DNA from: Acidobacteriota bacterium
GTDB lineage: Bacteria > Acidobacteriota > Vicinamibacteria > Vicinamibacterales > UBA2999
Reading direction: 5' to 3'
Assembly: GCA_018000455.1 (NCBI GenBank)
Contig: JAGNJW010000001.1
Span: 262,311-326,310 of the forward strand
DNA length: 64,000 bases
Part shown: in pieces, positions 43,056 through 64,000 of the stretch
How the letters are laid out: each line of letters opens with the position of its first letter
How positions within the stretch are numbered: position 1 is the stretch's first letter
Notes under the pieces: model-generated
Database searches by the model: none
Seen by the model: the letters and a program-made list of their open reading frames with translations, nothing else
Told to the model about the DNA's origin: nothing
Translations under genes and position numbers: made by a program

Positions 43056-43244
43056 TTACCGCCGGTGGGCGTAGACAGAGAGGCGGCGGGCCGAGAGAAA
43101 CGCCAGGAGCACCCCGCCGACGACCGGCGCCGGGATGTCCAAGCGGTCGAGCACGCCCACCCGCCGCCGGATGCCGTAGCCCGCAAACAGGACCAGCGTG
43201 GCCATGGCCAGCGTCTGGATGAGGTCGAGTGTGAGTGTCGTCAC
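43056..43244 (-). pseudogene. gltS: sodium/glutamate symporter GltS N-terminal remnant
   Basis: MTTLTLDLIQTLAMATLVLFAGYGIRRRVGVLDRLDIPAPVVGGVLLAFL parallels the GltS N-terminus (..TL..LLLG......FL.K..IPEPV.GGLL.AL). It stops after ~60 aa, against ~400 aa expected. Confidence 0.65.
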
Positions 43245-43365
43245 AGGGTGCCGGCGCCACTATGCGGCACCTCGGTCACTCGTGATTGATCCTCGCGATG
43301 TCGTTCCGTCTTGCTATCATCTCCGGCTGTCGGTCGCACCCTGGCGACCGGGATGGGACCCGATA

Positions 43366-45444
43366 ATGTCTGCACAGCGTTGGAATCGAATCGGCGTCGC
43401 GGCGACGCTCACGGTGGCTGTCGCGTTGGTGGCCGGGCCTGACCTCCGCCTCACGGCGCAGTCTCCGGCGCAGGCCGGCACGGCCGGTGGGGAGTGGGGA
43501 GTCTGGGGTGGCGACCTCGCCAGCTCGAGGTATTCGCCGCTTTCGCAGATCGACGAGACCAACTTCGACAAACTGCAGGTCATCTGGCGTTGGAAGGCAG
43601 CCAACTACGGGCCCGAGCCGGACCGCATCTATCGCGCCACGCCGCTCTACGTGAACGGCAAGCTCTACACGGTGGCAGGTCTCAGGCGCACGGTCACCTG
43701 CATCGACCCGGCCACCGGCGAGACGCTCTGGATGTTCCGTGAGAAGGACAACCCGCGCTGGGCCGCCTCGACGCGCAAGAACTACGGCAAGGGCGTGGCC
43801 TTTGCGCGCGTCGACGGCCGGCCCGTCATCTACATGGCGAGCGCGGGGTCGTACCTCTACGCGCTCGATGCCGATACCGGCCAGCCGCTGCCGTTCTTCG
43901 GCAACAACGGGGTCGTGGATCTGCACCTGGGCCTCGGACCGTACTCCGTCGATCCCGACCGCGGCGTGCTCGACTGGGGCGACATCACGACGTCATCGGC
44001 GCCGATTGTCGTCAACGGCGTGCTCGTCGTCGGCAACTCGCACGACCGTGGCTACTATCCCGAGAACCGCGAGAACATCCCGGGCGTGATCCGCGGCTAC
44101 GACGCCAGGTCGGGGCGGCTGCTCTGGAAGTTCAACCCGGTGCCCCAGGCCGGCGAGCCGTTCAACGACACCTGGGAGGACGAGTCCTGGAAGTACACCG
44201 GCAACGTGTCGCCGTGGGCGCCGCTGTCGGCCGATCCGGCGCTCGGCCTCGTCTACGTGGGCACCGATACCCCCACCAACGACTACTACGGCGGCAGCCG
44301 GCACGGCGCCAATGCCTTTGGCACGACGCTGCTGGCGCTCGATGTGAAGACCGGCGCGCGCAAGTGGCACTTCCAGTTCGTCCATCACGACATCTGGAAC
44401 ATGGACTTGCCCGACGCCCCGCATCTGCTCGACATCACGGTGGACGGGCGTCGCATCCCCGCCATCGCGCAGGCGACCAAGCAGGGGTGGGTCTATGTCT
44501 TCAACCGCGAGACGGGCGAGCCCGTGTGGCCGATTGTCGAGAAGGCCGTGCCGCAGTCGGACGTGCCCGGTGAGAAGACCTGGCCCACCCAGCCGCATGT
44601 GACCCGGCCGGCGCCGTTCGCCATCCAGGGATTCACCGAGAACGACATGGTGGACTTCACGCCAGCGCTGCGGGCCGAGGCCATCGCGAACGCGAAGCTG
44701 TTTCGCCAGGGGCCGCTCTTCACGCCGCCGTCGCTCGTCAACGCGCCCGACGGCACGCTCGGCGCGTTTCTCGTGCCGGGCTCGAACGGCGGAGCGAACA
44801 TCCCCGGCGGCGCCGCCGTCGACCCGGAGACCGGCTGGATGTACGTGGCCGCCCAGCACGGTTACACCGAGATCATCGCGCTGACGCCCGCCCAGGAGAA
44901 GTACCCCGAGGGCAAGCCGTGGGCCGGCTGGGGCAGTGAGACCGGCAAGATTACCTCGCTGTACGTCTCGACGCCGTCGCCCGTGCGCGGCGTGTCCGGC
45001 GGGCCCAACGCCCAGCTGCCGATCATCAAGCCGCCTTACGGCAGCATCACCGGCTACGACATGAACAAGGGCGATCTCGTTTTCCAGATCCCGAATGGCG
45101 AGACGCCGGACTTCGTGCGCGACCACCCGGCGCTCAAAGGGGTGACGATCGGCAACACGGGGCAGAACTCGCACGCCAACCTGCTCGTGACCAAGACGCT
45201 GCTGATGTACGGCGAGGGCCGCGGCGGCGACCGCTACTTCCGGGCTGTGGACAAGAAGACCGGCCGTGAGTTCGGGAAGGTGGCCCTGCCGGCGCAGACC
45301 AACACCGCGCCCCTGACCTTCATGCACAACGGCCATCAATACATCGTGGCCGCGATCGCCAGCGGCGATGTCGCCGCCGAGCTGGTGGCGCTGGCCCTGC
45401 CGGCCGCTCGAGTGGCGCGTACGCCCAACGGCCCCGGGAACTGA
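43366..45444 (+). CDS. PQQ-dependent dehydrogenase (quinoprotein glucose/alcohol dehydrogenase family), exported
   Basis: Signal peptide. PQQ beta-propeller motifs (W..WGGDLASSRYSPL, ATPLYVNGKLYT, DPATGETLW, ALDADTGQ, DIWNMD, ALDVKTGARKW). Confidence 0.85.
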   Translation: MSAQRWNRIGVAATLTVAVALVAGPDLRLTAQSPAQAGTAGGEWGVWGGDLASSRYSPLSQIDETNFDKLQVIWRWKAANYGPEPDRIYRATPLYVNGKLYTVAGLRRTVTCIDPATGETLWMFREKDNPRWAASTRKNYGKGVAFARVDGRPVIYMASAGSYLYALDADTGQPLPFFGNNGVVDLHLGLGPYSVDPDRGVLDWGDITTSSAPIVVNGVLVVGNSHDRGYYPENRENIPGVIRGYDARSGRLLWKFNPVPQAGEPFNDTWEDESWKYTGNVSPWAPLSADPALGLVYVGTDTPTNDYYGGSRHGANAFGTTLLALDVKTGARKWHFQFVHHDIWNMDLPDAPHLLDITVDGRRIPAIAQATKQGWVYVFNRETGEPVWPIVEKAVPQSDVPGEKTWPTQPHVTRPAPFAIQGFTENDMVDFTPALRAEAIANAKLFRQGPLFTPPSLVNAPDGTLGAFLVPGSNGGANIPGGAAVDPETGWMYVAAQHGYTEIIALTPAQEKYPEGKPWAGWGSETGKITSLYVSTPSPVRGVSGGPNAQLPIIKPPYGSITGYDMNKGDLVFQIPNGETPDFVRDHPALKGVTIGNTGQNSHANLLVTKTLLMYGEGRGGDRYFRAVDKKTGREFGKVALPAQTNTAPLTFMHNGHQYIVAAIASGDVAAELVALALPAARVARTPNGPGN

Positions 45445-45539
45445 CCGACCCCGCATTGGCCGGGATGGACCCAGGCGCGTGGCGGTGTTTCAGCGCGCTG
45501 CCCAGCGCATGCGTTCCAGCGTCTGGCGCCAGACGTCCG

Positions 45540-45670
45540 CCGCTCGAGTACCAGCACCCTGGCGCCGGCCTTGGCCAGTCGGTAGGCGCACACCGCGCCG
45601 CCGAATCCGCTGCCCACGATGGCGACATCGAACTGCGCAGCCACGGCCTGCCGGTGAACATCTCGTTCAT
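45540..45670 (-). pseudogene. GMC/FAD oxidoreductase N-terminal fragment
   Basis: Only the dinucleotide-binding start FDVAIVGSGFGGAVCAYRLAKAGARVLVLER is present. The sequence then degenerates and no clean start codon is in frame. Confidence 0.55.
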
Positions 45671-45754
45671 GGGCTGGGCGTGGAGCGAGCCGATGTTCTT
45701 CCGTCAGGGGGTATGCGTTCGAGCACGCGGCGAAAGCCCGCAGGACGCCGCAGT

Positions 45755-47119
45755 TCATACCGACCCTGGGGGAGACGCTTCGCAGCTCATGGCCCTGAGC
45801 AACTCGTCCCAGGCGCGCACGGCCCGAGCCCAGGAGTAAGTGCGGGCCACGTCGACTCCGCGCTGACCCAGCCGCTGCCGCTCTGAGCGATCGCGTGACA
45901 GCCAAAAAAGCGCCTGGATCGCGAGGCCCATGTCGATGACGCCGCGCACGCCATTGGTATTGAACGGCCGTGCGACCGTGGGCACGAGCACCGAGAAGGG
46001 CGCCGCATACTCGGGTGGCGCCGCGATGTCGGTGATGATGTTCGCGACGCCGCAGGCGCCAGTCTCGAGGACCGTCAACTCCCAGCCCCCGCTGTCGTAG
46101 GGTAGCAGATGCACGTCGCACGCCCCCATGCGACGAGCCAGTTCGTGCTCATCGACGCCGAGGCCCACACGGATCGATCGATCGAAGACGACCTGGTCCG
46201 AGATGCCCATGCGGTCGGCCAACAGGTCCAGATGCCATCCTCCCGACTGCGACCGCTCGATCCTCGACGGCAACTCGGTGTGCAAGTAGAGCCGCGCCGC
46301 CCGATTGACGGGCCCTCGGTGCACGTGCCCCGATCCGCAGTACCGGCAGGTCGGTGGCGCGTTTCCGGGGCCGTCGACTGGATCGACCGTAAACGGCGTG
46401 ACGCGCCAGCAGGCGTGGCACCGGACGAACGCACCCTGGGCGAACGCGCTGAATATCTCCAGGGCCCGGTCTGGATGCTTGTGCCCGGTATTCCTGCCGA
46501 AGTAGCCGACGAGCAGCGCATCGCCGTCATCGAGCCCGAAGAACCGGCGCCGCATGTCCTCGCGCGCATCCCCCGTCGGGGGCGTGAAGACGCTGGTGTC
46601 CACCCCGTGCGGAATGGGGGAAGCGACGCGCGGCGTCTCTTGCCCTGCACAGACCACATGGAGGGCGCGGCCGGCAAACGCCGTGTACGGCACGACCACA
46701 TCCACTCGTCGAAGCAGGCTGCCGGTGGGCGGGGCGAGTGGCGCCCAGTCCGTCGGCATGTAGGCCACGACGTCGACGCGGCCCCGGAGTCCCAACTGCT
46801 CCAACTGGTCGAGCACGAGGCTCTGCTGGGATCCGATCGACAGCAACAGACGTCGCGACTGCCCGGGCTGCACATCTGAAGTCAGTTCCGCCAAGAGCTT
46901 CCCGAGGCGCTCTCCGCTCAGGTCTTCAGGGGCGTCGGGCGGATCCACATCGAAGACCCGATAGGGCGGCGGCTGCCGCCAGACCGCCGGCGGATAGAAG
47001 CCGACGAAGTCCACGGACCACTGGTGCTGCGTCTGCAGTCCTCGCGCGATCTGGTCTCCGACCACCGAGAAGCCGCGGTGGAGCGAGGGGTGATCGCCGA
47101 CGACAATCAGCGCTGGCAT
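45755..47119 (-). CDS. GT-B (GT4-like) glycosyltransferase with inserted Cys4 zinc-ribbon
   Basis: N-terminal Rossmann-like start MPALIVVGDH. LVGYFGRNTGHKHPDRALEIF. C-terminal EX7E-like WELTVLETGACGV. Insert CHAC-x20-CRYC at 46337..46420. ATG 47119 lies 1 nt after the upstream stop. Confidence 0.7.
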   Translation of the reverse strand: MPALIVVGDHPSLHRGFSVVGDQIARGLQTQHQWSVDFVGFYPPAVWRQPPPYRVFDVDPPDAPEDLSGERLGKLLAELTSDVQPGQSRRLLLSIGSQQSLVLDQLEQLGLRGRVDVVAYMPTDWAPLAPPTGSLLRRVDVVVPYTAFAGRALHVVCAGQETPRVASPIPHGVDTSVFTPPTGDAREDMRRRFFGLDDGDALLVGYFGRNTGHKHPDRALEIFSAFAQGAFVRCHACWRVTPFTVDPVDGPGNAPPTCRYCGSGHVHRGPVNRAARLYLHTELPSRIERSQSGGWHLDLLADRMGISDQVVFDRSIRVGLGVDEHELARRMGACDVHLLPYDSGGWELTVLETGACGVANIITDIAAPPEYAAPFSVLVPTVARPFNTNGVRGVIDMGLAIQALFWLSRDRSERQRLGQRGVDVARTYSWARAVRAWDELLRAMSCEASPPGSV

Positions 47120-47120
47120 G

Positions 47121-48416
47121 CTAGAGCCGCTCCGAGAGCCGATCGATCTCCGCACGCCACTGACCCACGGCGACGGCCCGACGTTGTCGGCGCATGGCGT
47201 CGCCCGCCGCCAGGCTGAGGGCCGCTCGGTCAGCGGGCGATTCGGCAAGGGAGCACAGCGCTTGCACGGCGACGCCGCCGTCGATGAGCGCGTTCAGATG
47301 CCCTTCCGACGCGTAGGAAAGCGCGCAGGGCTGGACGAGCCTCGCGTGGGGCCCGATGATGTCGACTGCCGCACCGTAGCGCGTGGTGATCGTCGGGACG
47401 CCGAGGGCGCATCCCGCGAGTACTGCCGGCTCGACATCCGCCAACTGGTGAGGCAGGAAGTGGATGTCCATGGCCGTCAGCGCCTCGAGCAGCAACTCGC
47501 GCGACGTGATGAGGCGGTGCCCTTCGTCTCCGCCGATCGACACTTGACCCTCCAAGCCACAGGCGCGCCGGAACGCCGCAAACGTCCATTGGTTGGGCAC
47601 GAAGGATCGGCCGCGGGACGCCAGGACCCCATCGATGAGGACGAGGCGCGCCTCGGGATGTGGCCGACCGCGTGTCCCTTCGGTGCCCAGGCACGACGCG
47701 CACCTCGATGTCGAGATCGCCACGAGTGCATCGTCAATCGCGAACACCGTGACGCGTGCGCAGCGCGTGCAGGCCCAATACAGGCCCTGGACGAAAAGCC
47801 GGAAGATCTGAATTGCGAGAAAGCCTCGGCGATCCCCGATATCGCCGAGGCAACAACCGATGACCAGGCTCTCTGGCGGGAGACGCCACAGGCGCTGCCG
47901 AAGCGCGTCGCCATCTGAGGGCGGGCGCCGATCGTCGGATGCCACGTCCACCAGCGGCGGGATGATGACAGGAGGTCGCCGAAGGGGCGCCGACCGTTCC
48001 GCGCAGACGCGATTCACCGCGCGCGCGCCAAACGCGGACTCGGTCACGATCAGGTCGGCGAAACGAAATAGATCCGATGTCCCTGGTTGAAACGGGATCT
48101 CGGCGGAGGACGCGTGCACGACCACGCTCACGCGGGCCTTGAGGCCTGCGGTGACGAGCGCCCACATCACACGACGTTGCTCGGCGATGCTGCCGCGCAG
48201 CAGCACCAGAGGCCGCGAGGCCGCCGGCTCGAGAGAGCCGATCAACCGGCGGACGAGTCGAACCGCGCGTGTGACGACGCGCGGGGTGTCGGGCAACTCG
48301 TGGCAGCTGACCTCCCAGCGTCCCTGTTCCGCAAGCGCCCGTGCCAACGCAGGCGACGCCGGCAGCACCGGCGAACGTTCCGCGTCTCCGGCCTCGAGGA
48401 TCAGGAGGCGCTGCAC
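47121..48416 (-). CDS. GT-B-like protein, paralogue of 45755..47119, with Cys4 zinc-ribbon and degenerate acceptor/donor motif
   Basis: Same architecture as its paralogue: CTRC-x19-CASC at 47691..47771. The C-terminal region reads DVEPAVLAGCALGVPTITT, so the second Glu of EX7E is replaced. GTG start lies 9 nt after the precursor stop. Confidence 0.65.
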   Translation of the reverse strand: MQRLLILEAGDAERSPVLPASPALARALAEQGRWEVSCHELPDTPRVVTRAVRLVRRLIGSLEPAASRPLVLLRGSIAEQRRVMWALVTAGLKARVSVVVHASSAEIPFQPGTSDLFRFADLIVTESAFGARAVNRVCAERSAPLRRPPVIIPPLVDVASDDRRPPSDGDALRQRLWRLPPESLVIGCCLGDIGDRRGFLAIQIFRLFVQGLYWACTRCARVTVFAIDDALVAISTSRCASCLGTEGTRGRPHPEARLVLIDGVLASRGRSFVPNQWTFAAFRRACGLEGQVSIGGDEGHRLITSRELLLEALTAMDIHFLPHQLADVEPAVLAGCALGVPTITTRYGAAVDIIGPHARLVQPCALSYASEGHLNALIDGGVAVQALCSLAESPADRAALSLAAGDAMRRQRRAVAVGQWRAEIDRLSERL

Positions 48417-48425
48417 GCGTCGGGG

Positions 48426-48665
48426 CTAGCTGTCGGCGAACCGCCGGGCGCGGCCGCCGGCGATGCTCCGCAGGTCGGCGTCCGAGAGCTTGTCGAGCTC
48501 GTCGACGTCCTCCATCGCGCTGCTCAGGTCGCCGTCCGAGAAAGCGTAGCCCAGTTCCTGAGCCAGGCCCAGCAGGGCGCCCCGCTGCGCGTCCTCAGCC
48601 CTCGTTGCCAACTGCTCGTCGGTTGCGATCTTGACCAGGAACTCTTTCGCGGATTGCACGCTCAT
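48426..48665 (-). CDS. Nif11-like leader peptide / RiPP precursor candidate with double-glycine motif
   Basis: MSVQSAKEFLVKIATDEQLATRAED...LAQELGYAFSDGDL...LSDADLRSIAGG|RARRFADS. The Nif11-type N-terminal helix pattern and the LSxxELxxIxGG consensus are both met. GAGGGGG lies 5 nt upstream of the ATG. Confidence 0.75.
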   Translation of the reverse strand: MSVQSAKEFLVKIATDEQLATRAEDAQRGALLGLAQELGYAFSDGDLSSAMEDVDELDKLSDADLRSIAGGRARRFADS

Positions 48666-48767
48666 GATTCCCCCTCAGGAGCCTATTTGCGTTGCCGACA
48701 GCGACAGGACGCTCGCCAGCCGCATGATGAGCCGAGGGGCAATGCGGTGTCAAACCGACGTCCTGCG

Positions 48768-50282
48768 CTAACTACACATGACGGCCGCGCGATATGTCAT
48801 GAGGCCGCTGAACAACTGTCGATTCAACGCCTTCGGCGAAATCGTGGGCAAGGCATATCCTGCAGCCTCGAATCGCGAACCCTTCAAGAGGCCATAGAGT
48901 TCCAGGATGCAGTCCTTGTGAAACGGCTCCATGATGAATCTGAACAAATCCTGGTGATACTGAGAAGTCTCATGATGACCAGCCGCGTCGGCCAGGACAT
49001 ACAGTTCCTTTTGTGCGCATAGTGTTCGCGGGCGGTCGGTGAGGTATCGAACAAGCCTGTGCTGCAGCCGGATTGCGGTGTCGTCGATGTCACGGCTGCC
49101 CGCGAACGCGCCGAAGTACGCCTGCAGGACTCCATTGAATATGTTGACCGCGCCCGGACCGGACAGGAGGGCCATCAGGTCCTCCGACAACGCGCACAGA
49201 CACAACGATGTCGTCATCTTGACGAGCGCGCTCGAGACGTCCCGGATGACCTGCGGGCCACGCAGATTGTCCGGCAGATCACGCATGTCGAGACAGCTGT
49301 CGAGGTCGGTCTGATACACCCGCTCACTGAATTGGTTGATCAGGAAGTTGGTGGTCACGGACGCATGCCTCGCGACGCCCGCTTCGAGAATCGCGCGAGC
49401 GTTGACCTGGGCAACCTTCTGATAGATCGCCACGAAATTGGCGACCAGGTCCTCGAGATCGCACGCGGGGGACAGGTGTCCTGAGGCGGGCCGCCTGACG
49501 GTCAGCGGCCCATGGCTCAGACGATGCCAGATGAAGCGGATACGCGCGGCCACAGTCGTGGCGTCGGCGTCGTGAGCAAGGAACACGCCCCCCGTCCGCC
49601 TCGTTCTCGTGCCCCGATCGAAACAGTCGAACTCCGGCGTGTCGTGGGTCCCGAACCGCACCGCCAACAGTGCCGCGAGGCCTGCGTCAACCGACGCCAG
49701 TGCCTGCTGGAACCTGTACTCATTCGCGGCGCCCGTTTCTAGCAGTGAGTGCAAGGCCTTCAGCCCGCTCCCCACGACTTGCAGTCTCAAGTGCTCATCG
49801 AGCATCAGGTGGACCCGGGGAAAGTCGGAGTAAGACCTGTCAGGACTGGGCCGGACTTGCTGGAAGCTCGTCTCCGAAAGGGCGGTCAGCCCCTGGATGC
49901 CTTTTGACTTGACGCCCCGTATGCCGCGCTTGGCAAGGCTGCCGGCCTCGGCGGATCGTGAATAGATGGTGCGACCAGCCGCGAGTGGCGTCGAGCAGGG
50001 TTGCGGCTCCGCACAGGAGGCAAAGCGTCCAAGCAGGTCTGCCTCTTCGGGCGTCAGGTCTGGATGTCGATGAGTGATGAGAAAGCGGCGAAGAACACGG
50101 TCCGTCGCAGGAAGAAACTCGGAACGATCGACTGTTTCAACTGACGGGGCAAGAAGGGGACTGGCCACCAGGGCATCGTATCGGAGATCCCGGGGGCTTC
50201 TCCGGCCGGCACCCAGGCGGAACCGATGGCGACAGGGCGTGGGCCCCACCGTATGATCGGCGAGGAGCAGTCCCGTGTCCAA
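48768..50282 (-). CDS. orphan 504-aa protein, no recognisable family
   Basis: Long ORF in a visibly AT-richer stretch with protein-like, largely helical composition. It lies directly upstream of the precursor gene. The TTG start at 50282 overlaps the divergent GT2 start, so the true start is uncertain. Confidence 0.5.
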   Translation of the reverse strand: MDTGLLLADHTVGPTPCRHRFRLGAGRRSPRDLRYDALVASPLLAPSVETVDRSEFLPATDRVLRRFLITHRHPDLTPEEADLLGRFASCAEPQPCSTPLAAGRTIYSRSAEAGSLAKRGIRGVKSKGIQGLTALSETSFQQVRPSPDRSYSDFPRVHLMLDEHLRLQVVGSGLKALHSLLETGAANEYRFQQALASVDAGLAALLAVRFGTHDTPEFDCFDRGTRTRRTGGVFLAHDADATTVAARIRFIWHRLSHGPLTVRRPASGHLSPACDLEDLVANFVAIYQKVAQVNARAILEAGVARHASVTTNFLINQFSERVYQTDLDSCLDMRDLPDNLRGPQVIRDVSSALVKMTTSLCLCALSEDLMALLSGPGAVNIFNGVLQAYFGAFAGSRDIDDTAIRLQHRLVRYLTDRPRTLCAQKELYVLADAAGHHETSQYHQDLFRFIMEPFHKDCILELYGLLKGSRFEAAGYALPTISPKALNRQLFSGLMTYRAAVMCS

Positions 50283-51114
50283 TAGACCGCGCTATAGGGC
50301 CGTGGTGGTGGTGCCCACCTTCAACGCCAGGCACACGATCGGCCAGACGCTCTCTTCCATCGCCGACAGCATTCGCCACTGCGCTTCGACCCGAGGTGGG
50401 GCCGACCGAATCGCCGTGTCGGTGGTCGACGACGCCTCGACCGACGACACGGCGTCGCTCGTCGTGGCCTTCGCCAGGACGTCGCCCTTCGATGTCCTCC
50501 TGACCGCCCTCGAGCAGAACCACGGGCGTGGACACGCGCGCAATCGAGCGGTCGCGGCCGCCGCGGCGGACTGCTACTTCTTCCTTGATCACGACGACGA
50601 GTACCTGCCGTCGCACATCACGGGGTGTCTCGACGCACTCGACGCTGATCCGCGGGCCGATTTCGTCAAGACCGGCGTCCAGCTGTCGGACCCAGTACAC
50701 CCGGACTGGGAACCCCGGATCGCGGCCAGTCTAACGCAGAATCTGTGCATCCGGGCGTACTGCCATGGCCTCGTCGGTGGGTTCCACGAAGAGCCCGAGG
50801 TCGAAGTCTTCGGGTGCGATGACATTCTGTACAATCGCTCGCTGCGCGCGTGTTGCCGTGGCTTGGACACGCCGGCCAGGACGGTCACGTTCAGCCGTCG
50901 GCCGGGCAACTCCTTCGACCGACAGTTCGAGCGGAAGTTCTCGCGGCCGGCGTCAGAAGCGGAGGTGACGTTGTCGCCGAGGCAACTCGAAGTGCGGGCC
51001 CGGGTCTGGGAGATTCACGCGCAGCGGCTGGCAGAGGTGAACGGGCGGCTGCGCCGGATAGCCTCCACGTCGCGCCGCGCGAGCGCGCCCATGGAGGCTC
51101 CCGCGCATGACTGA
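50275..51114 (+). CDS. family 2 glycosyltransferase (GT-A)
   Basis: GTG start with GGAG 7 nt upstream. VVVVPTFNARHTIGQTLSSI, VVDDASTDDT, NHGRGHARN, and FFLDHDDEY (DxD). Confidence 0.85.
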   Translation: MSNRPRYRAVVVVPTFNARHTIGQTLSSIADSIRHCASTRGGADRIAVSVVDDASTDDTASLVVAFARTSPFDVLLTALEQNHGRGHARNRAVAAAAADCYFFLDHDDEYLPSHITGCLDALDADPRADFVKTGVQLSDPVHPDWEPRIAASLTQNLCIRAYCHGLVGGFHEEPEVEVFGCDDILYNRSLRACCRGLDTPARTVTFSRRPGNSFDRQFERKFSRPASEAEVTLSPRQLEVRARVWEIHAQRLAEVNGRLRRIASTSRRASAPMEAPAHD

Positions 51115-51880
51115 CTCCTCGGGCTCCCCCTTCCGGGTCGAGTGTCGGGCCGTTCCGGCTGACGAGCCGGTGCACGTCGATGACGAAGGATGTCGGATCT
51201 ACGCCGTGATGGTGACGGGCAAGACCTCCGCGCGTGCGGGACTCGCCAGGGCGTCGGTCCAGAGTTTTCTTTCGCAGACCTACGGCAACCGTGTCCTGGT
51301 GATTGTCAATGACGGGGCATTCGATCTCCGCGTGCTGGGGCTTCCAGCGGACCGCGTCGTGCACATTCGCCCGGGTGACAGGCAATCACTCGGCCACTTG
51401 AGAAACTGCGGGCTCGACGCCGTCCCGGCCGGGGCCGTCTGGACCTATTGGGACGATGACGACTGGCATCATCCGCGTTTGATGGCCTCGCAGTATCGGG
51501 TGATGTCGCGACTCGGGGTCGAGGCGTGCTTCCTCCGCAATCAGGTCAAGTGCAGCCTCGTGACGAGCACCGCCTTTGTCGATCGTCACCCTGGGGGCTT
51601 TGCGGGCACCTTCATGGGGCATGCCAGTCCGCACTTCCGGTTTCCCGACTTGGGGAAACGCGAGGACTCGGTCTTCACTGCCGCCGTCAAGCACGGCGCG
51701 CGATGGTATCCCTGGAACAACCCGCCCCATTACTATCTGCGGTTCTTCCATCGGGCCAACGTGTGGGACGAGCAGCATTTCGGCTTCGACCGTCGCGAGC
51801 CCGGGACGTGGCAGGTGCCGCGGCAGTCGGCCGAGTATCTCTCGTCCGTCCTGCGGCACTATCCCGGAGTCGCGCCGTGA
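51107..51880 (+). CDS. GT-A-like glycosyltransferase (divergent family 2)
   Basis: YAVMVTGKTSARAGLARASVQSFLSQTYGNRVLVIVNDG, GHLRNCGLDA, and YWDDDDWHHP (DxD). Overlaps the upstream gene by 8 nt. Confidence 0.7.
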   Translation: MTDSSGSPFRVECRAVPADEPVHVDDEGCRIYAVMVTGKTSARAGLARASVQSFLSQTYGNRVLVIVNDGAFDLRVLGLPADRVVHIRPGDRQSLGHLRNCGLDAVPAGAVWTYWDDDDWHHPRLMASQYRVMSRLGVEACFLRNQVKCSLVTSTAFVDRHPGGFAGTFMGHASPHFRFPDLGKREDSVFTAAVKHGARWYPWNNPPHYYLRFFHRANVWDEQHFGFDRREPGTWQVPRQSAEYLSSVLRHYPGVAP

Positions 51881-52506
51881 CCGCGGCCAAGCTCGCGGAG
51901 ATCGCCGTATTTCGCGGGGCGTGTCAGAAGATGCGTGAGCTGACGCCGCTCGTGTCGCTCGTGAAGCGCCGGCGAATCCGATCCGTCCTGGAGATCGGCA
52001 CGCTCAAAGGAGGCACGCTGTGGTTGTGGTGCCAGTTGACCGCCCCCGACGGTACGATCGTGAGCGTCGACTTGCCCGGCGGTGAGTTCGGCGGCGGGTA
52101 CGCCGAGGACGACATCGGCCGGCTGCGCGCCCATGCCAAGCCTGGGCAGTCACTGCATCTGATCCGCGGAGACTCGCACCTGCCGCGCACGTTGGGCGAG
52201 GTCACCGCGGCCCTTTCCGGAAGGTCACTCGATCTGCTGTTTCTCGACGGCGACCATCGCTACGCCGGAGTGAAGCAGGATTTCGAGATGTACGCGCCGT
52301 TGGTGCGGCAGGGGGGCCTGATCGTGATGCACGACATCTTGCCGCACCCCAGGGTCCCGGTCTGTGGTGTGCATCGATTCTGGAATGCGACCAAGAGGCA
52401 CTATCGCCATCGCGAGTTTTCCGAAGCGCACGACGACCGTGGGTGGGGACAATGGGGAGGCCTCGGCGTCATCACCTACACCCCGCAACGGCTCACATCG
52501 TCGTGA
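51877..52506 (+). CDS. class I SAM-dependent methyltransferase (CmcI/Methyltransf_24-like)
   Basis: GTG 51877 overlaps the upstream TGA (GTGA). VLEIGTLKGGTLWLW SAM-binding motif, FLDGDHRY, and GGLIVMHD. Confidence 0.8.
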   Translation: MTAAKLAEIAVFRGACQKMRELTPLVSLVKRRRIRSVLEIGTLKGGTLWLWCQLTAPDGTIVSVDLPGGEFGGGYAEDDIGRLRAHAKPGQSLHLIRGDSHLPRTLGEVTAALSGRSLDLLFLDGDHRYAGVKQDFEMYAPLVRQGGLIVMHDILPHPRVPVCGVHRFWNATKRHYRHREFSEAHDDRGWGQWGGLGVITYTPQRLTSS

Positions 52507-53558
52507 CAAAGACTGCGCGCGCCGGACCGTGGTGTCGACGCGATCGCGCGTCGGTACGACCCCTCCTCGTGGCCAACTATGCCTACGTCCTCGGGGGCGG
52601 CGAGGTCGGCCTTCGCATGTTGGTCGAAGGCCTCACGGCTCGTGGGCTTCGGCCGGTCCTCGCTGTTCCCGGCACGGGGCGACTCTTCGATGAGTTCGAG
52701 CAGCAGTCCATCGCCGAGGAACCGCCCCAGGCCGCGGCTGATCTCCGAGCCCTGGCGGCAGGCTGCCACGTGATCCACACGTTCTCCGCTCGCTGGGCGC
52801 TCGCGGCGGCGCGCGGCATGACCGGCAAGCCGCTGATCCTGCACGCATTGCTGCCGACCCGCTCCAGGGACGATCGCGCGGCGGCCAGCGCAGTGGACCT
52901 CGTCGTGTGCAACTCGCGCGCCACGGCTGCGCGCTTCGATCCTCCCGTGCGTCCCAGGGTCGTCTACAACGGCGTGCGAAGGCCGGAACCGGCGCGGCCG
53001 CCGCTTCACGTCCGTCCGGGGCGGCGCACCATCGGTCTTGTTGGGAATATCTGCCCCAGGAAAGGGCAGTACGACGTCTTGCCGGCGCTCGAGCGCGTGC
53101 TCGAACTCAGGCCCGATATCGACGTGGTCTTTGCCGGCCGTGTCAGCGGAGCGATCGGGCTGGTGCTCAGCGAGCGCGCGGCAACATCGGCAGGCCGCAT
53201 CCGCATGCTCGGATTCGTGCCGGACATCGCCGACCACCTCGCCACGTTGTCGCTCGTCCTCGTGCCCTCTCGATCCGAAGGGTTCGGGCGGGTCGCCGTC
53301 GAAGCCATGCGCGCCGGCACACCCATACTGGCGACGCGCGTCGAAGGCTTGATCGAAGGATTGTCCGGCCTGCGCGATCCGTGGCTGCCTGACGATCGAG
53401 CCCGGTGGGCCGAGCGGATCGTGCAGGAACTGGATGCGCCCTCACATTCCCGGGCAGAGCTCGAAGCGGCCGGTGCCAGATTCGACCCTTCGGCGTACAT
53501 CGAGGCGATCGTGGGTTGTTACGAAGACGTGCTGGGCGGGAGGGCGAACACGGACTAG
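52503..53558 (+). CDS. family 4 glycosyltransferase (GT-B, glycosyl transferases group 1)
   Basis: GTG 52503 overlaps the upstream TGA (GTGA). LLVANYAYVLGGGEVGL, LVGNICPRKGQ, and PSRSEGFGRVAVEAMRAGTPILAT (EX7E). Confidence 0.85.
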   Translation: MTKTARAGPWCRRDRASVRPLLVANYAYVLGGGEVGLRMLVEGLTARGLRPVLAVPGTGRLFDEFEQQSIAEEPPQAAADLRALAAGCHVIHTFSARWALAAARGMTGKPLILHALLPTRSRDDRAAASAVDLVVCNSRATAARFDPPVRPRVVYNGVRRPEPARPPLHVRPGRRTIGLVGNICPRKGQYDVLPALERVLELRPDIDVVFAGRVSGAIGLVLSERAATSAGRIRMLGFVPDIADHLATLSLVLVPSRSEGFGRVAVEAMRAGTPILATRVEGLIEGLSGLRDPWLPDDRARWAERIVQELDAPSHSRAELEAAGARFDPSAYIEAIVGCYEDVLGGRANTD

Positions 53559-59637: not shown

Positions 59638-60846
59638 TCACTCGTGACGCAAGGCATCGATCGGGTCGAGCTGCGCGGCCCGGCGGGCCGGCAGATAGCC
59701 GAACAGCACGCCCATGCCGGCGGAGAAGGCGAACGCCAGCAGGTTGATGGCCGGATCGAACAGGAACGGCACCTGCATGAGCGAGGCGAGATACATCGAC
59801 GCGCCGGCCGCCACGAGCAGGCCGATGACGCCGCCGATTGACGACAAGGTCACCGCTTCGACCAGGAACTGGAGCAGCACCTCGCGCTCGAGCGCGCCGA
59901 TCGCCAGGCGCGTGCCGATCTCGCGCGTCCGCTCGGTGATCGACACCAGCATGATGTTCATGATGCCGATGCCGCCGACCAGCAAACTCACGGCGGCGAC
60001 CGCGCCGAGCAGCGTCGTGAGGAGTTGCGTCGTGCCGGTCATGGTTTGGGCGATCTCGCGGGTATCGAGCACGTTGAAGTTGTCATCGACGCCCTCGCCG
60101 ATGTGGCGCCGTTCACGCATCAGCTGTTCGGCCGCCGCCTTGACCCGGTCGGTGTCCACGCCGTCGCGGACGGAGAGCTGGATCTGGCTGACCTCGTCGC
60201 TGCCGGTGATACGGCGCTGCAGCGTGCGTAGCGGCACCAGCACCGTGTCGTCCTGGTCGCGCCCCATCGACGCTTGGCCCTTCGACCTGAGCAGGCCGAT
60301 CACCTCGCACGAGAACTGCTTGACGCGGATGGTGTTGCCGACGGGATTGGTGACGCCGAAGAGCTTCGTCCGCACCGTCTCGCCAACGATGCAGACCGGC
60401 GCGCCAGACTTCTCTTCGGCTTCGGTGAAGGCGCGGCCGGAAGCGAGCGTCCAGTTGCCGACGGTCAGGTAGTCGGCGGTCGTGCCGGTGACGTTCGTCG
60501 TCCAGTTCTTCGCCATCGCCACGACGGTGACGCTCTGACTCATGCTCGGCGCCACCGCGCGCAGGCCGCTCAACTGCTCGCGCGCCGCGTTGGCGTCGGC
60601 GACCTTGAAGCGCGGCGCCGGCTGCCCTGCCGAGCCGGAGCCCCGCCCCTGACCGGGGCTGATGATCAGCAGATTGCTGCCCAGGCTGGCAATCTGCGCC
60701 GACACCGACTGCGTCGTGCCGTTGCCGAGCGTCACCATCGTGACCACAGCCGAGACGCCGATGACGACTCCCAGGATGGTGAGCGTCGACCGCATCACGT
60801 TGCGGCTGAGGCTCTTGAGCGCCATCAGGATCGTAGTCATGACCAT
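59638..60846 (-). CDS. MacB-type ABC transporter permease (MacB_PCD + FtsX domains)
   Basis: N-terminal TM, a large periplasmic domain, and a C-terminal FtsX 3-TM bundle (LVGGIGIMNIMLVSITERTREIGTRLAIGA). Confidence 0.9.
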   Translation of the reverse strand: MVMTTILMALKSLSRNVMRSTLTILGVVIGVSAVVTMVTLGNGTTQSVSAQIASLGSNLLIISPGQGRGSGSAGQPAPRFKVADANAAREQLSGLRAVAPSMSQSVTVVAMAKNWTTNVTGTTADYLTVGNWTLASGRAFTEAEEKSGAPVCIVGETVRTKLFGVTNPVGNTIRVKQFSCEVIGLLRSKGQASMGRDQDDTVLVPLRTLQRRITGSDEVSQIQLSVRDGVDTDRVKAAAEQLMRERRHIGEGVDDNFNVLDTREIAQTMTGTTQLLTTLLGAVAAVSLLVGGIGIMNIMLVSITERTREIGTRLAIGALEREVLLQFLVEAVTLSSIGGVIGLLVAAGASMYLASLMQVPFLFDPAINLLAFAFSAGMGVLFGYLPARRAAQLDPIDALRHE

Positions 60847-61598
60847 CAGTGCACCGGCTCCCTTCCAGTGTCTCGTGCCACCTGGCCATCCACGATCTGG
60901 ATGGTGCGGTCGGCAAGGGCGGCGACGTCGGGTTCGTGCGTCACCATCAGCACGGTGAGACCGCGGTCGCGGTTCAGCCCGGCGATCAGATCGAGAATCT
61001 CGCGGCCGCGGGCCGAGTCGAGGTTGCCGGTAGGCTCATCGGCGAACAGGACATCCGGATCGGCCACGAGCGCGCGGGCGATGGCGACGCGCTGCTGCTG
61101 CCCGCCCGAGAGCTCCGACGGTGTGTGCGTGGCCCAGCGCTCGAGGCCGACCAGCGCCAGCGCCTCCATCGCGCTCTGGCGGCGGGCCCGGCCGCGGACG
61201 CCTCGATAGAGCAGCGGCAGTTCCACGTTTTCGAGCGCGGACGTGCGCTTCAGCAGGTTGAACCCCTGAAAGACGAAGCCGAGATAGTGACGGCGCAGCA
61301 GCGCCCGCTGCGAGCGCGTCAGGCGCTCGACTTCGACGCCCCGGAAGCGATAGCTGCCCGAGGTCGGCGTGTCGAGACAGCCGAGGATGTTCATCAGCGT
61401 CGACTTGCCTGAGCCGCTCGGCCCGGTGATGGCCACGAACTCGCCACGCTGGATGGTGAGGCTGACGCCGCGCAAGGCCTGGAACGCGGCATCGCCCTGC
61501 CCGTAGGTCTTGACGACGCTGGTCAGCGCGATGATCGGCTCGGCCGCCGGCGCGACGGCGACTGGCGGCGCCGTCAGTTCCGTGCTGCTGAGGCTCAT
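60846..61598 (-). CDS. ABC transporter ATP-binding protein (MacB/LolD type)
   Basis: Walker A GPSGSGKST, LSGGQQQRVAIARAL, Walker B LFADEPTGNLD. ATG 61598 overlaps the upstream stop (ATGA). Confidence 0.9.
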   Translation of the reverse strand: MSLSSTELTAPPVAVAPAAEPIIALTSVVKTYGQGDAAFQALRGVSLTIQRGEFVAITGPSGSGKSTLMNILGCLDTPTSGSYRFRGVEVERLTRSQRALLRRHYLGFVFQGFNLLKRTSALENVELPLLYRGVRGRARRQSAMEALALVGLERWATHTPSELSGGQQQRVAIARALVADPDVLFADEPTGNLDSARGREILDLIAGLNRDRGLTVLMVTHEPDVAALADRTIQIVDGQVARDTGREPVH

Positions 61599-62884
61599 GA
61601 TCTGGCTCCTGTCGTCGCTTCGGTGATGACCTGGTCGCCCTCGGCGAGGGCACCGGCCAGCACCTCGGTGGCGCTGCCGTCGGTGACGCCCGTCGTGACC
61701 GCCACGGCTTGAGCGGCGCCGTTGCGCAGCACCCACACCGTGCTGGTGCCATCGGCCGGCGTCGTGGTGGCGACGCGGGTGGTGTTGTTGCGGGGCGGCC
61801 CGGGCATCAGGCTGCCGACGAAACCGCGGCCGCTGGCCGCGGCGGCCTCGGGCGTGTAGCGCAGCGCGGCGTTCGGCACCAGCAGGGCCGCGGTGACCGA
61901 GGCGGTGGCAATCTCGGCCGAGGCCGTCATGCCAGGACGCAAGCTCAGGTCGTCATTGGCAACCACCAGCACCGTCGCATACGAGACGACGTCGGCAGTG
62001 GTCGTGGCGCCGAAGGCCACGCGCGTCACGTGTGCGTCGTAGGTCCGGCCTGGATAGGCGTCGACCGAGAAGGTCGCGGTCTGCCCGTCGCCCACGCGGC
62101 CCACGTCGGCTTCGTCGACGGCGACTTCAAGTTCCATCTTGCGCAGGTCTTCGGCGATCGTGAACAGGGTCGCGACCTGCAGGGACGCGGCCACGGTCTG
62201 GCCGGGCTCGACCGACCGCTGCAGCACGATGCCGTCGATTGGCGAGCGGATCGACGCCTTGGCCAGGCTCGTGCTATCGGAGTTCAGCGTGGCGCGGGCT
62301 TCCGTCACCGCGGCCACCGCGCTCAGGCGGTCGGCGTCGGCGCGTGCCAGCGTCGCCTCGGCGGTGTCCATCTCGACCTTCGACGGCACCTTGCCGTTCG
62401 ACAGGCGCGACACCTCGCGCAGCCGCTCGATCGTGGCGGTCGCTTCACGCACGGTGGCGTCCGTCTGTGTCAGGCGCGCCTCGGCCGAGGCCAGCAAGGC
62501 TTCAGACCGCGTGATCTGATCCTGCAGGCGCGACGTGTCGAGGCGGGCCAGCACCTGGCCCTTCTTCACGACGGCGTTCTCGTCGACGAACACGGCGACG
62601 ACGAGACCCGAGAGCTCCGAGCCGACGTCGACGGTGTTGGTCGGCTGCAGCGTCCCGGTCGCCGAGACGTGCACGTGCAGGTCGCCGCGTTCGACCGAGG
62701 CGGTGAGGTACGCCGGCGCGTTGGCCGCCGGGCTCGTGGCCCGGACGTAGTACACGGTGAGGCCGGCGGCCGCGATCAGCGCGGCGACGACCAGCCAGGC
62801 GCCGAGGCGCCGGCTCCTGCTGCCGGTCGCTTCACCTGCCAGCAGGGCGGTCATGTCGTCGTGGGTGTCAGTTCTGGTGCTCAT
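61595..62884 (-). CDS. efflux periplasmic adaptor (MacA/HlyD family)
   Basis: N-terminal TM, then lipoyl/hairpin/beta-barrel pattern (TGTLQPTNTVDVGSELSG, coiled-coil region, DGIVL.RSVEPGQTV, V.VDAYPG). Confidence 0.85.
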   Translation of the reverse strand: MSTRTDTHDDMTALLAGEATGSRSRRLGAWLVVAALIAAAGLTVYYVRATSPAANAPAYLTASVERGDLHVHVSATGTLQPTNTVDVGSELSGLVVAVFVDENAVVKKGQVLARLDTSRLQDQITRSEALLASAEARLTQTDATVREATATIERLREVSRLSNGKVPSKVEMDTAEATLARADADRLSAVAAVTEARATLNSDSTSLAKASIRSPIDGIVLQRSVEPGQTVAASLQVATLFTIAEDLRKMELEVAVDEADVGRVGDGQTATFSVDAYPGRTYDAHVTRVAFGATTTADVVSYATVLVVANDDLSLRPGMTASAEIATASVTAALLVPNAALRYTPEAAAASGRGFVGSLMPGPPRNNTTRVATTTPADGTSTVWVLRNGAAQAVAVTTGVTDGSATEVLAGALAEGDQVITEATTGARS

Positions 62885-64000
62885 GATGTCGTCGTCTCCG
62901 TCGTCGCCGCGGGCGACCAGCCGCCGCCGAGCGCTCTGTAGAGCTGCACGAGCGCCGCCATCCGGTCACCGGTCGTGACCACGACGCTCTCCTGCACGCT
63001 GAGCACGGTGCGCTCGGTCGAGAGCACCGTCTGGAAGTCGATGAGGCCGGCCGCGTACTGCGTCCGCGCCAGGGTGGCGGCCGTGTCGGCGGCGGTGGCC
63101 GCCGCCTCGAGCGCGTTCAGGCGATCGCGGCTGCGCTCGAAGGCCACCAGCGCGCGTTCGACGTCTTCGAGCGCGGTGAGCACCGTGCCCTCGTAGGTGG
63201 CGACCGCCTGGGCCTGCACCGCGCCCTGGGCGGCAATCTGCTCGCGGATGCGGCCGCGGTCGAACAGCGGCTGGAAGAGGCTGCCGAGAATCGACGTCGC
63301 CACCGACGTGCCGGCGCTGCCGGCGCCCTTCAGTACCTCGGCGCCGACGCTGCCCGACAGCGCGAACGAGGGCAGCCGGCGGGCATCGGTCTGGGCCAGC
63401 CGCGCGGTCTCCGCCGCGAGGCGGCGTTCGGCCGCCTGCACGTCGGGCCGCTGCCGCAGCGTCTCGGCGGGAATGCCGAACGCCAGGCTCTCGGGCACCG
63501 CCGGCAGCGCGATGACGGCGGTGAGTTCCGCCACGAAGGCGCCGGGCTCGGCGCCGGCCAGCGTGGCCAGCCGATACATCGCCTGCCGCGCACTCGCCTC
63601 CAGCGTCGGGATGGCGGCCCGCGTCTGCTCGAGGTTGGCGCGTGCCTGTTCGACATCGAGCTCGGTGACGAGTCCGGCCTGTGCCCGGAAGCCGGTCAGC
63701 TCGAGCGTCTCGGCCTGGCTGGCGACGTTCCGCTCGGCCACATCGAGGCGCGCCTGCAGTGTCCGGAGTTCGAGATAAGTGGTCGCGACATCGGCGGCGA
63801 GCGACACGTGCGCGCCGGCGAGGTCGGCGGCCACGGCCTGCAGATCGGCGGTGGCGGCGTCGCGTCCCTTGCGGATGCCGCCGACGATGTCCGGCTCCCA
63901 GCTCGCGTCCAGACTGCCACCGTAAGAGCCGGTGTTGACGTTGACGATGCTGGTCTGGCCGTCGAGTCCGAGGGCGCGCTGGCCACTTCGCCGCGCCGTC
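62881..64000 (-). CDS. TolC/NodT-family outer membrane efflux protein (5' end outside window)
   Basis: OEP repeats (LDASWEPDIVGGIRKGRDAATADLQA, TTYLELRTLQARLDVAERN, VQLYRALGGGW). The reading frame stays open to the window edge. The stop overlaps the adaptor start (ATGA). Confidence 0.8.
   Translation of the reverse strand, partial: TARRSGQRALGLDGQTSIVNVNTGSYGGSLDASWEPDIVGGIRKGRDAATADLQAVAADLAGAHVSLAADVATTYLELRTLQARLDVAERNVASQAETLELTGFRAQAGLVTELDVEQARANLEQTRAAIPTLEASARQAMYRLATLAGAEPGAFVAELTAVIALPAVPESLAFGIPAETLRQRPDVQAAERRLAAETARLAQTDARRLPSFALSGSVGAEVLKGAGSAGTSVATSILGSLFQPLFDRGRIREQIAAQGAVQAQAVATYEGTVLTALEDVERALVAFERSRDRLNALEAAATAADTAATLARTQYAAGLIDFQTVLSTERTVLSVQESVVVTTGDRMAALVQLYRALGGGWSPAATTETTTS

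Follow-up and report, generated by a model that had tools for sequence, protein, structure and literature searches.

Precursors of ribosomally synthesised, post-translationally modified peptides (RiPPs) bearing a Nif11-like leader, prochlorosin being an example, usually keep company with LanM-type lanthionine synthetases, cyclodehydratases or radical SAM enzymes. In a 64,000-nucleotide stretch of an Acidobacteriota genome (order Vicinamibacterales; GenBank assembly GCA_018000455.1, contig JAGNJW010000001.1, positions 262,311 to 326,310 of the forward strand; hereafter the window), a small open reading frame (ORF) at 48426..48665 on the minus strand encodes a 79-aa protein whose leader is matched end to end by the NCBIfam model of such precursors, TIGR03798, and finishes in a double glycine. 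Unlike in the usual Nif11 systems, however, its conserved partners are glycosyltransferase-fold proteins, its predicted core amounts to eight residues without a cysteine, and no exporter is encoded within the 64 kb. We propose that the product of this ORF is the precursor to a glycosylated peptide, made on the ribosome and modified after translation, whose family is undescribed, and we give this mechanism as a whole a probability of roughly 55%.

Glycosylated bacteriocins are known from the glycocins, which employ a single SunS-type GT-A enzyme of glycosyltransferase (GT) family 2 that places one sugar per site on a disulfide-stapled helical core of 30-45 aa. According to two published accounts, sublancin, glycocin F, thurandacin and pallidocin combine a double-glycine-type leader with S- or O-glycosylation of side chains before export (PMC9576775, PMC12457901). 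The window peptide is glycocin-like in being ribosomal and in having a leader of the double-glycine type. On the other hand, where the glycocin core is a helix-loop-helix of ~30-45 residues with at least four Cys, RARRFADS has 8 residues and 0 Cys, and 19/20 cores of its family are Cys-free. The enzymes coupled to the precursor are GT4-like GT-B proteins with a Zn-ribbon-like insert rather than SunS/ThuS-type GT2 enzymes (SunS itself was not compared directly), and the 3-6 further GTs together with a methyltransferase imply an oligosaccharide.

With regard to the enzymes, the GT-B (GT4-like) fold modelled for the two proteins encoded next to the precursor, here called GTa and GTb, is shared by GtfA/GtfB and SdgB. 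In the former system, which modifies serine-rich-repeat adhesins, a catalytic GT-B enzyme is joined by an acceptor-binding, non-catalytic paralogue, and GtfC and later soluble GTs extend the glycan step by step in the cytoplasm, ahead of a dedicated export (PMC6973325). SdgB, a GT-B O-linked N-acetylglucosamine (GlcNAc) transferase, acts on Ser in a minimal D-S-D motif and has an inserted domain by which it binds the peptide (PMC8561734). The motif pattern of GTb and GTa fits the division of labour between GtfA and GtfB, and the combination of a GT-B fold like that of GTb with an acceptor serine next to an aspartate is likewise found in SdgB/SdgA, which act on Staphylococcus Ser-Asp repeats; SdgB also occurs among the structural matches of our models. 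Both systems differ from the window in other respects. GtfA/GtfB are Firmicutes proteins with a DUF1975 insertion, a beta-sandwich through which partner and acceptor are bound, and they serve huge Ser-rich repeat proteins exported by SecA2/Y2, whereas the acceptor proposed here would be a leader-bearing mini-peptide of Gram-negative phyla that leaves by the route of peptidase-containing ABC transporters. SdgB ranks behind MshA, BshA and GlgM as a structural match, has a DUF1975 rather than a Zn-ribbon-like insert, and acts on a long repeat substrate instead of a leader-guided peptide. No Pfam match to DUF1975 was obtained for GTa or GTb, which have a CxxC...CxxC insert instead. Since no DUF1975 domain is detected and the insert is Zn-ribbon-like, GTa and GTb would work like GtfA/GtfB and SdgB without being members of these families.

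In the literature searched, no account came to light of a Nif11/NHLP precursor that is accompanied by enzymes of the GT4 type. The precursor superfamily is known already (one homologue bears the JGI label 'predicted ribosomally synthesized peptide with nif11-like leader'), as are glycosylated bacteriocins. Undescribed in the same literature is the combination seen here, in which a Cys-free core of eight residues and a conserved D-S/T sequon occur with a GT4-like pair, predicted to be one catalytic and one degenerate enzyme with a Zn-ribbon-like insert, and with a full complement of soluble GTs for extension. The apparent novelty lies in this set of partner enzymes, in the sequon and in the minimal size of the core.

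Leader and core of the predicted precursor

The ORF translates into MSVQSAKEFLVKIATDEQLATRAEDAQRGALLGLAQELGYAFSDGDLSSAMEDVDELDKLSDADLRSIAGGRARRFADS* (79 aa plus stop), in which residues 1-71 (48453..48665) form the leader and residues 72-79, RARRFADS (48429..48452), the predicted core. The leader ends in LSDADLRSIAGG (residues 60-71), so that positions -12 to -1 read L-S-D-A-D-L-R-S-I-A-G-G, in accordance with the double-glycine junction pattern L(-12) S(-11) E/D(-8) L(-7) I/L/V(-4). An initial annotation of this DNA had described an LSxxELxxIxGG-type motif with E replaced by D, followed by the core RARRFADS, and the translation agrees with it at every residue of both. The Nif11-type leader that it had assigned is borne out by two profiles above their curated cutoffs, namely TIGR03798 ('Nif11-like leader peptide family RiPP precursor'; 51.7 bits, cutoff 32.3) and Pfam Nif11 (PF07862; 36.6 bits, cutoff 23.8). 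As residues 1-71 align to the whole of the TIGR03798 profile (positions 1-68 of 68), the family model stops exactly at the double glycine.

Several features mark the ORF as a gene. Its GC content at the three codon positions (0.70/0.44/0.90, in a window of 67% GC) is strongly coding-like, as would be expected of a translated gene. Gene calls on at least 24 public contigs, including the NCBI assembly GCA_020054605.1, give exactly this peptide, and because of this, and because its tail is kept in diverged homologues, the ORF is real beyond chance. The Shine-Dalgarno sequence and the TTGACA hexamer reported in the initial annotation are both present: a Shine-Dalgarno-like GAGGGGG (48670..48676, minus strand), read from the sequence, lies 4 nt upstream of the ATG, and a sigma-70-like promoter match, by consensus alone, TTGACA-18-CATCAT (48724..48753, minus strand; 10/12 consensus positions, with TTGACA at 48748..48753), begins 15 nt past the stop codon of the upstream ORF. 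By consensus scanning, three promoter-like sites occur in 5.2 kb, as against 0.3 expected from shuffles. No terminator or attenuator was found 3' of the precursor, where the gap to GTa is just 9 nt. We consider it very probable that the gene is a RiPP-type precursor gene.

A word-indexed search of 5.8 billion proteins with the peptide returned four clusters, and further members were reached via the neighbouring GTb gene, which brought the number of related peptides to ~20, their sources being Acidobacteriota (Vicinamibacterales), Burkholderiales, Gammaproteobacteria and metagenomes; individual loci are denoted below by L and a number. The four clusters have the cores RARRFADS, RSRRFFDS, RARRFLDS and LLRRRILDS. 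To these short cores are added RARRFFDS, RARRYLDS in two Vicinamibacterales metagenome-assembled genomes (MAGs; L004 and L024), RARRVVDS in L025, and RIRRRVLDS and RIRRRYVDT from the two genes of L009. The double-glycine motif is kept in all four clusters and in L004/L024, L025, L009 and L014. Leaders at the short-core loci are just 40-60% identical to that of the window, and the tails are nonetheless kept, with the consensus R-x-R-R-(R)-hydrophobic-x-D-S/T-COOH. The initial annotation had named loss of the octapeptide from homologues as the outcome that would count against a precursor, and had proposed to compare the cores behind homologous leaders; the tail proved to be conserved in diverged homologues, and such a comparison brings out this one recurring pattern. 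On its ENA contig, the Nif11 peptide of L002 (9757..10008) is called with a nonsense tail, …SEARVGPRGRRPGQTLLRLLVVG, whereas the +1 frame gives …ELDRVAGGRARRFFDS*. A one-base assembly error probably hides a conserved core there, and after correction of this apparent frameshift the core reads ELDRVAGGRARRFFDS*.

Other members of the family have long, Ser/Thr-rich cores of 16-55 residues, in which D-S is kept internally. These are GLGL...GIGGLGLRRFFDS in L003, IARAFPSHSDSITRSR in L005 (Burkholderiales), ...ISGWRDDSLLW in L007, ...GRGGFTIRDSLLY and ...ARRGFHLDSLGF in L014, AFSRGGFTLDSFTV... in L016, and ...CGYNDSLG... and ATRYAIHNDSVLPLRGIYNDSLG... in L018, with D-S in the contexts FTIRDSLLY, FHLDSLGF, WRDDSLLW, FTLDSF, YNDSLG, HNDSVL and SHSDSI. 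Core length across the family therefore spans 8-55 residues; two precursor genes each are present in L009, L014, L015 and L018. A D[ST] pair occurs in 19/20 cores and Ser or Thr in 20/20, while Cys is found in 1/20. The chance of finding D[ST] in a given core, estimated from shuffles, is 0.03-0.5, and the product over nine dissimilar long cores is ~1e-7, which is to be taken as a rough guide as the loci are related. The long-core variant of L003 (1..285) has a second GG nine residues before its end (…NLLGIGG followed by LGLRRFFDS), and this terminal nonapeptide is similar to LLRRRILDS, the core of L001. Either a further site of processing or the insertion of a spacer may account for the second GG.

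The glycosyltransferase pair and the proposed acceptor residue

GTa (47121..48416, minus strand; 431 aa) starts 9 nt after the precursor stop, and the ATG of GTb (45755..47119, minus strand; 454 aa, with M44 of a 497-aa ORF as its true start) lies 1 nt past the GTa stop, which makes precursor, GTa and GTb a tight operon with the precursor first. The two enzymes are paralogues (30% identity, E 4e-32) and GT4-like GT-B proteins, each interrupted by a Zn-ribbon-like CxxC...CxxC segment of ~45 residues with short strands. Whereas GTb has weak Pfam GT1 matches, GTa had no match in Pfam or NCBIfam. AlphaFold2 models of GTb (predicted local distance difference test, pLDDT, 92.6; predicted template modelling score 0.91) and GTa (pLDDT 85.6) matched GT4 structures with a Foldseek probability of 1.00. 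The leading PDB matches of GTb were GlgM, MshA, BshA, PimB' and WaaG, and those of GTa were BshA, MshA and other GT4 enzymes; a chlorovirus GT was also among the matches, and SdgB stood at ranks 34-37 for the two models (37 for GTb), with 11-15% identity.

The paralogues differ in their donor-binding motifs. GTb keeps DHPSxHRGF (N-terminal loop), GRNSxHK (phosphate-binding) and GGWELTVLETGACGVPNV, the counterpart of the second Glu in the EX7E region of GT4 enzymes, in 10/10 loci. In GTa all three are lost across the same ten-locus motif table, where one reads, for instance, LGDIGDRR and ADVEPAVLAGCALGVP, while the four Cys of the insert are mostly retained. Because the donor motifs are kept in the one and lost in the other, GTb is the predicted catalytic priming enzyme and GTa a predicted degenerate, non-catalytic partner or substrate-binding subunit.

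GTb belongs to a small, coherent family. At E <= 0.001 it has 81 proteins, and 80 of these are closely related to GTb (E <= 5e-54); most fall into 90%-identity clusters of 1-8 members, and the names, where there are any, are just 'glycosyltransferase'. For GTa, the word-indexed search returned three clusters. A combined alignment of GTa and GTb was too divergent for locus scanning, and the locus search used GTb alone. A Nif11-type peptide adjoins the GTb-family gene in L001-L005, L007, L009, L012, L014-L016, L018, L024 and L025, the two being up to a few genes apart in L007 and L016, and all but one locus long enough to be judged carry such a peptide; none was found within the 7.8 kb of L011. 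We regard the peptide as probably the substrate of the GT set.

As to the chemistry, the notion in the initial annotation that a short, Cys-free core requires something other than lanthionine or azole formation is supported, with glycosylation as the most plausible modification. It had left the acceptor open between Ser79 and the arginines. The serine is favoured over Arg since D-S/T is the sole feature common to short and long cores (19/20), Arg is not universal, and the linked proteins have GT4-like GT-B folds of the retaining type; we would put the odds of Ser79 being the acceptor at about even; the arginine half of the proposal found no specific support.

Arginine glycosylation is not without precedent. 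EarP, a GT-B enzyme, rhamnosylates Arg32 of EF-P, and NleB/SseK are Arg-GlcNAc transferases that act on death domains and have a GT-A rather than a GT-B fold. A core with three Arg among eight residues, and an R-x-R-R block invariant among the short cores, would suit the idea that the GT-B enzymes here modify the guanidinium group of R72, R74 or R75 in a similar manner. This is nevertheless very improbable, as Arg is not kept in the long cores of L018, whose common elements are just YNDSLG, HNDSVL and YNDSLG, and as the S-to-T swap in the second L009 peptide (L009b) preserves a hydroxyl group. Foldseek, moreover, groups GTa and GTb with the GT4 enzymes MshA, BshA, GlgM, PimB', WaaG and SdgB; no EarP structure was among the top 50 PDB matches of either model, and neither EarP (GT104) nor NleB/SseK could be linked to them through Pfam, NCBIfam or those top 50 matches, with no EarP-family Pfam match in GTa or GTb.

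The position of the serine raises another alternative. Pathways built on scaffold peptides, such as that of the pearlins, and glycogenin-type priming offer an analogy in logic for a peptide that is a primer and not the end product: a methylated oligosaccharide or small glycoside would be built on the C-terminal Ser and then released. In the short cores the acceptor-like residue is indeed the very last one, and GTs and tailoring enzymes are numerous and differ between loci (L009 and L014 have 5-8 GTs). In the long cores, however, conserved hydrophobic residues come after an internal D-S, the loci have no conserved hydrolase or protease for the release, and the in-cluster C39 exporter of L024 (see below) points to export of the peptide itself, so that we deem a scaffold role unlikely.

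The internal sequon of the cores in L005, L007, L014, L016 and L018 continues after D-S with L, V, I or F, while the short cores stop at D-S and have no +1 residue. The general O-glycosylation motif of Bacteroidetes, used in the periplasm with a lipid-linked glycan, is D-(S/T)-(A/I/L/V/M/T). The likeness of the two is probably a coincidence of acceptor preference.

Gene set, exporter genes and proposed pathway

On the strand opposite to the precursor, four genes are translationally coupled by ATGA/GTGA overlaps. GT2a (50275..51114, plus strand), a divergently transcribed family 2 GT (Pfam Glycos_transf_2, 79.7 bits), is followed by the GT2-like GT2b (51107..51880, plus strand; Pfam GT2 22 bits, below cutoff), whose start overlaps the GT2a stop in an ATGA. 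Next come a methyltransferase (51877..52506, plus strand; Pfam Methyltransf_24 60.9 bits, RMNT_CmcI 26.8 bits) with a GTGA overlap with GT2b and a length of 209 aa, as is also called on public contigs, L019 and L020, and GT4 (52503..53558, plus strand; Glyco_trans_1_4 72.5 bits, Glycos_transf_1 66.8 bits), the start of which is uncertain (52443, 52503 or 52569). The best NCBIfam matches of GT2a and GT2b are polysaccharide or small-molecule GTs, and the two are generic GT2 proteins. GT2a has homologues beside the peptide in L001, L002, L004, L007, L009 and L011; homologues of GT2b are 53-57% identical in L002, L004, L007 and L009, where they are fused to GT2a in proteins of 529-545 aa, and those of GT4 are 51-59% identical beside the peptide in L002, L004, L007, L009 and L011. 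GT2a and GT4 are predicted glycan-extending enzymes, and the Methyltransf_24/RMNT_CmcI-like protein is a predicted sugar O-methyltransferase.

This arrangement, with GT4 and GT2a/GT2b (often fused) divergent from precursor-GTa-GTb, recurs in the metagenomic loci L001, L002, L007, L009, L014, L016, L018 and L025. It is found likewise in the Vicinamibacterales loci L004 and L024 and, rearranged, in L015 (a Gammaproteobacteria MAG), while L005 (a Burkholderiales MAG) has GTb alone, without GTa. Accessory genes are of sugar-tailoring types and vary from locus to locus. They comprise genes for Methyltransf_24, GFO/IDH/MocA-DAO oxidoreductase, NTP_transferase, sulfotransferase, GT8, additional GT2 and GT1 proteins, epimerase and radical SAM proteins, with 5-8 GTs per locus in L009 and L014. 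No flippase (Wzx), polymerase (Wzy), polyprenyl-phosphate transferase or membrane GT appears in the locus listings, and the window enzymes have no transmembrane-like stretch (maximum 19-residue Kyte-Doolittle mean <=1.52). Soluble enzymes in the absence of flippase, polymerase and polyprenyl-phosphate transferase thus fit a stepwise cytoplasmic glycosylation of a soluble acceptor. A lipid-linked polysaccharide cluster was considered and rejected, as the locus listings show no membrane machinery and the window enzymes no transmembrane-like segments.

The same observations bear on whether the peptide is modified at all. Double-glycine leaders also serve competence pheromones and class II bacteriocins, and the export set of L024 needs no modification enzyme; RARRFADS might hence be cut after the double glycine and secreted as an unmodified, linear pheromone- or bacteriocin-like signal, while the neighbouring GTs make an unrelated glycan. 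We think this improbable in view of the gaps of 9 nt and 1 nt to GTa and GTb, and because in Acidobacteriota, Burkholderiales and Gammaproteobacteria alike the peptide stays linked to this rare GT pair, whatever else the neighbourhood contains. Besides, the GTb family is small, nearly all of its judgeable loci have a Nif11 peptide, and the loci do not contain the membrane machinery expected of a polysaccharide pathway.

Leaders of the NHLP/Nif11 family that end in a double glycine are established substrates of C39 transporters (PMC9576775). In L024, an NHLM export system follows right after the GT genes. The first gene directly after GTb, on the same strand, encodes a protein binding cyclic nucleotide monophosphates (cNMP-binding; TIGR03896, 'bacteriocin-type transport-associated', 142 bits, below cutoff), and the set further comprises an NHLP bacteriocin system HlyD protein (TIGR03794; 317 bits, cutoff 156), a peptidase/permease/ATPase subunit with Pfam Peptidase_C39 (TIGR03796; 961 bits, cutoff 853) and TIGR03797 (816 bits, cutoff 709). 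As judged from its gene order, this locus, with the core RARRYLDS, presents a full precursor-to-exporter logic in one operon direction. The L004 contig, whose locus is nearly identical, is shorter and breaks off within the HlyD gene; the L015 contig begins inside a TIGR03797 gene (518 bits for the fragment); and in L005, a cNMP-binding protein and then a TolC-like fragment come after GTb. L025 has no exporter nearby. The window itself has no such transporter, and all that it contains of this general kind is a MacAB-TolC-like efflux operon (59638..63834, minus strand; NodT-family outer-membrane factor, MacA-like adaptor, ABC ATPase and MacB/FtsX-type permease) ~11 kb from the precursor, which is generic and not of the NHLM type of L024, and one other ABC ATPase. 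An exporter for the window locus must be encoded elsewhere in the genome, or be absent.

Alternatively, the 79-aa protein might stay in the cytoplasm as an uncleaved Nif11-domain subunit that regulates or chaperones the GT complex and uses its C-terminal tail as a docking motif. Pfam Nif11 does occur in stand-alone proteins, the 64-kb window has no exporter, and a methyltransferase of L018 with an N-terminal Nif11-like segment hints at contacts between Nif11 modules and enzymes. Yet the leader is a full TIGR03798 leader with a conserved L-S-x-x-D/E-L-x-x-I-x-G-G end in the relatives, the hypervariable core length (8-55 aa) and the loci with two peptide genes are typical of RiPPs, and L024 has a dedicated C39 exporter within the operon. 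An uncleaved subunit is very improbable.

For the glycosylated-precursor reading that we prefer, the observations are the leader's family membership, its double-glycine motif, the conserved core, the gene linkage, the GT folds and the lost motifs of GTa. Everything enzymatic is inferred from these, from the role of GTa through glycan extension to cleavage and export in this organism. The 79-aa precursor would be translated as the product of the first gene of the precursor-GTa-GTb operon, with a promoter and a ribosome-binding site of its own, and would be engaged in the cytoplasm by the GTa/GTb pair. GTa is proposed to hold the leader or the core, like GtfB for GtfA, while GTb would transfer the first sugar to the hydroxyl group of Ser79 within the hydrophobic-x-D-S/T sequon. 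The soluble enzymes GT4, GT2a and GT2b may then extend the glycan, and the Methyltransf_24/RMNT_CmcI-like enzyme may O-methylate one of its sugars. Finally, an NHLP/Nif11-type exporter encoded outside the window, presumably made up of a C39-peptidase ABC subunit, a second ABC subunit and an HlyD adaptor, would cut after Gly71 and export a cationic glyco-octapeptide.

Several points weigh against this proposal. GT specificity, donor sugar and acceptor are not readable from sequence, and it would be unusual for the acceptor to be a single Ser right at the C-terminal end. One family member, L015b, has no D-S/T, the cores of L015 and L012 look different, and the loci share descent, so that the conservation counts are not independent. 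The loss of function suggested for GTa follows from motif loss alone. Motif searches and NCBIfam scans of the 64-kb window found no C39 or NHLM transporter or protease. The DAO-type oxidoreductase of the cluster is reduced to a remnant here (see below), so the window cluster may be partly decayed.

More tentatively, the locus might be the founding example of a new RiPP class, in which a Nif11 leader recruits a heterodimer of pseudo-GT and GT4-like enzyme, each with a Zn-ribbon-like insert, that primes a hydrophobic-x-D-S/T sequon, before a methylated oligosaccharide is added in the cytoplasm by soluble GTs and a methyltransferase; we hold this broader claim to be possible but doubtful. Such a class would occur in poorly explored soil phyla such as Vicinamibacterales, and the system is compact, consisting of one peptide and six enzymes. 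If correct, its product would be a secreted cationic octapeptide with a multi-sugar chain on the C-terminal Ser, a glycoconjugate undescribed for ribosomal peptides, as is the leader-guided, GT-B-primed, multi-step enzyme logic behind it. The RiPP repertoire would gain a leader-guided multi-step O-glycosylation pathway, uncultured Acidobacteriota and Proteobacteria would be the source of a new class of small cationic glycopeptides, and leader plus x-D-S could serve as a compact peptide tag for enzymatic glyco-engineering.

Other genes of the window and further observations

Between GT2a and the precursor lies an intervening ORF (48768..50282, minus strand) of maximally 504 aa, or ~455 aa by homologue alignment. 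It had no match in Pfam, NCBIfam, PADLOC or the PDB sequences, even with a 24-member profile. It belongs to an unnamed but real family, with 51 proteins at E <= 0.001 among 50%-identity representatives, the motifs G-R-S...K-x-K-G...E...H-x5-N...D-x-D, and the invariant residues G103, R104, K125, K127, G128, E188, H306, N312, D326, D328 and D348. Its GC content at third codon positions is 0.73, and the local GC content is 0.59-0.65 vs 0.67. The ORF is absent at every other peptide-GT locus (in L001, GT2a abuts the peptide), on which ground it was rejected as a modifying enzyme of the system; it is probably an insertion outside the conserved gene set.

Downstream of GTb, with a 4-nt overlap, a 140-aa ORF (45336..45758, minus strand) with a GxGxxG N-terminus corresponds to the remnant of a protein binding flavin adenine dinucleotide (FAD). 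It is called a DAO/FAD_binding fragment on L022 and L023 and weakly matches the DAO part of a 671-aa protein of L002; in L002, L011, L014, L016 and L025, a full-length DAO or GFO-DAO oxidoreductase of 470-676 aa takes its place. The ORF, which is probably a truncated DAO leftover, overlaps at its 3' end the convergent gene of a dehydrogenase dependent on pyrroloquinoline quinone (43198..45444, plus strand). Such dehydrogenase genes also lie near the cluster in L014 (16026..17984) and L018 (1..577), which may reflect common genome ancestry rather than function.

A role in anti-phage defence, for which a partial Pfam match to 'GT4-conflict' might have spoken, was considered and dropped after PADLOC returned no defence-system match.

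Large radical SAM proteins are encoded together with the GT genes in L004/L024 (3006..5897) and in L005 (8976..10979, with a B12-binding domain), whereas the window has none; at the edge of L024 there is an rSAM/SPASM gene as well. Additional tailoring steps in the relatives are possible. In L018, a Methyltransf_11-type methyltransferase beside the two precursor genes (7753..8640) has a Nif11-like N-terminal segment (a weak hidden Markov model match, E 4e-4) followed by a CxxC...CxxC motif, a possible hint at repeated use of Nif11-like modules and Zn-ribbon-like motifs for interactions within the system. Just past the cluster of L016 (14600..19241), an AbiEii-like gene, a nucleotidyltransferase and a group II intron reverse transcriptase suggest that this cluster borders mobile or defence-type DNA.

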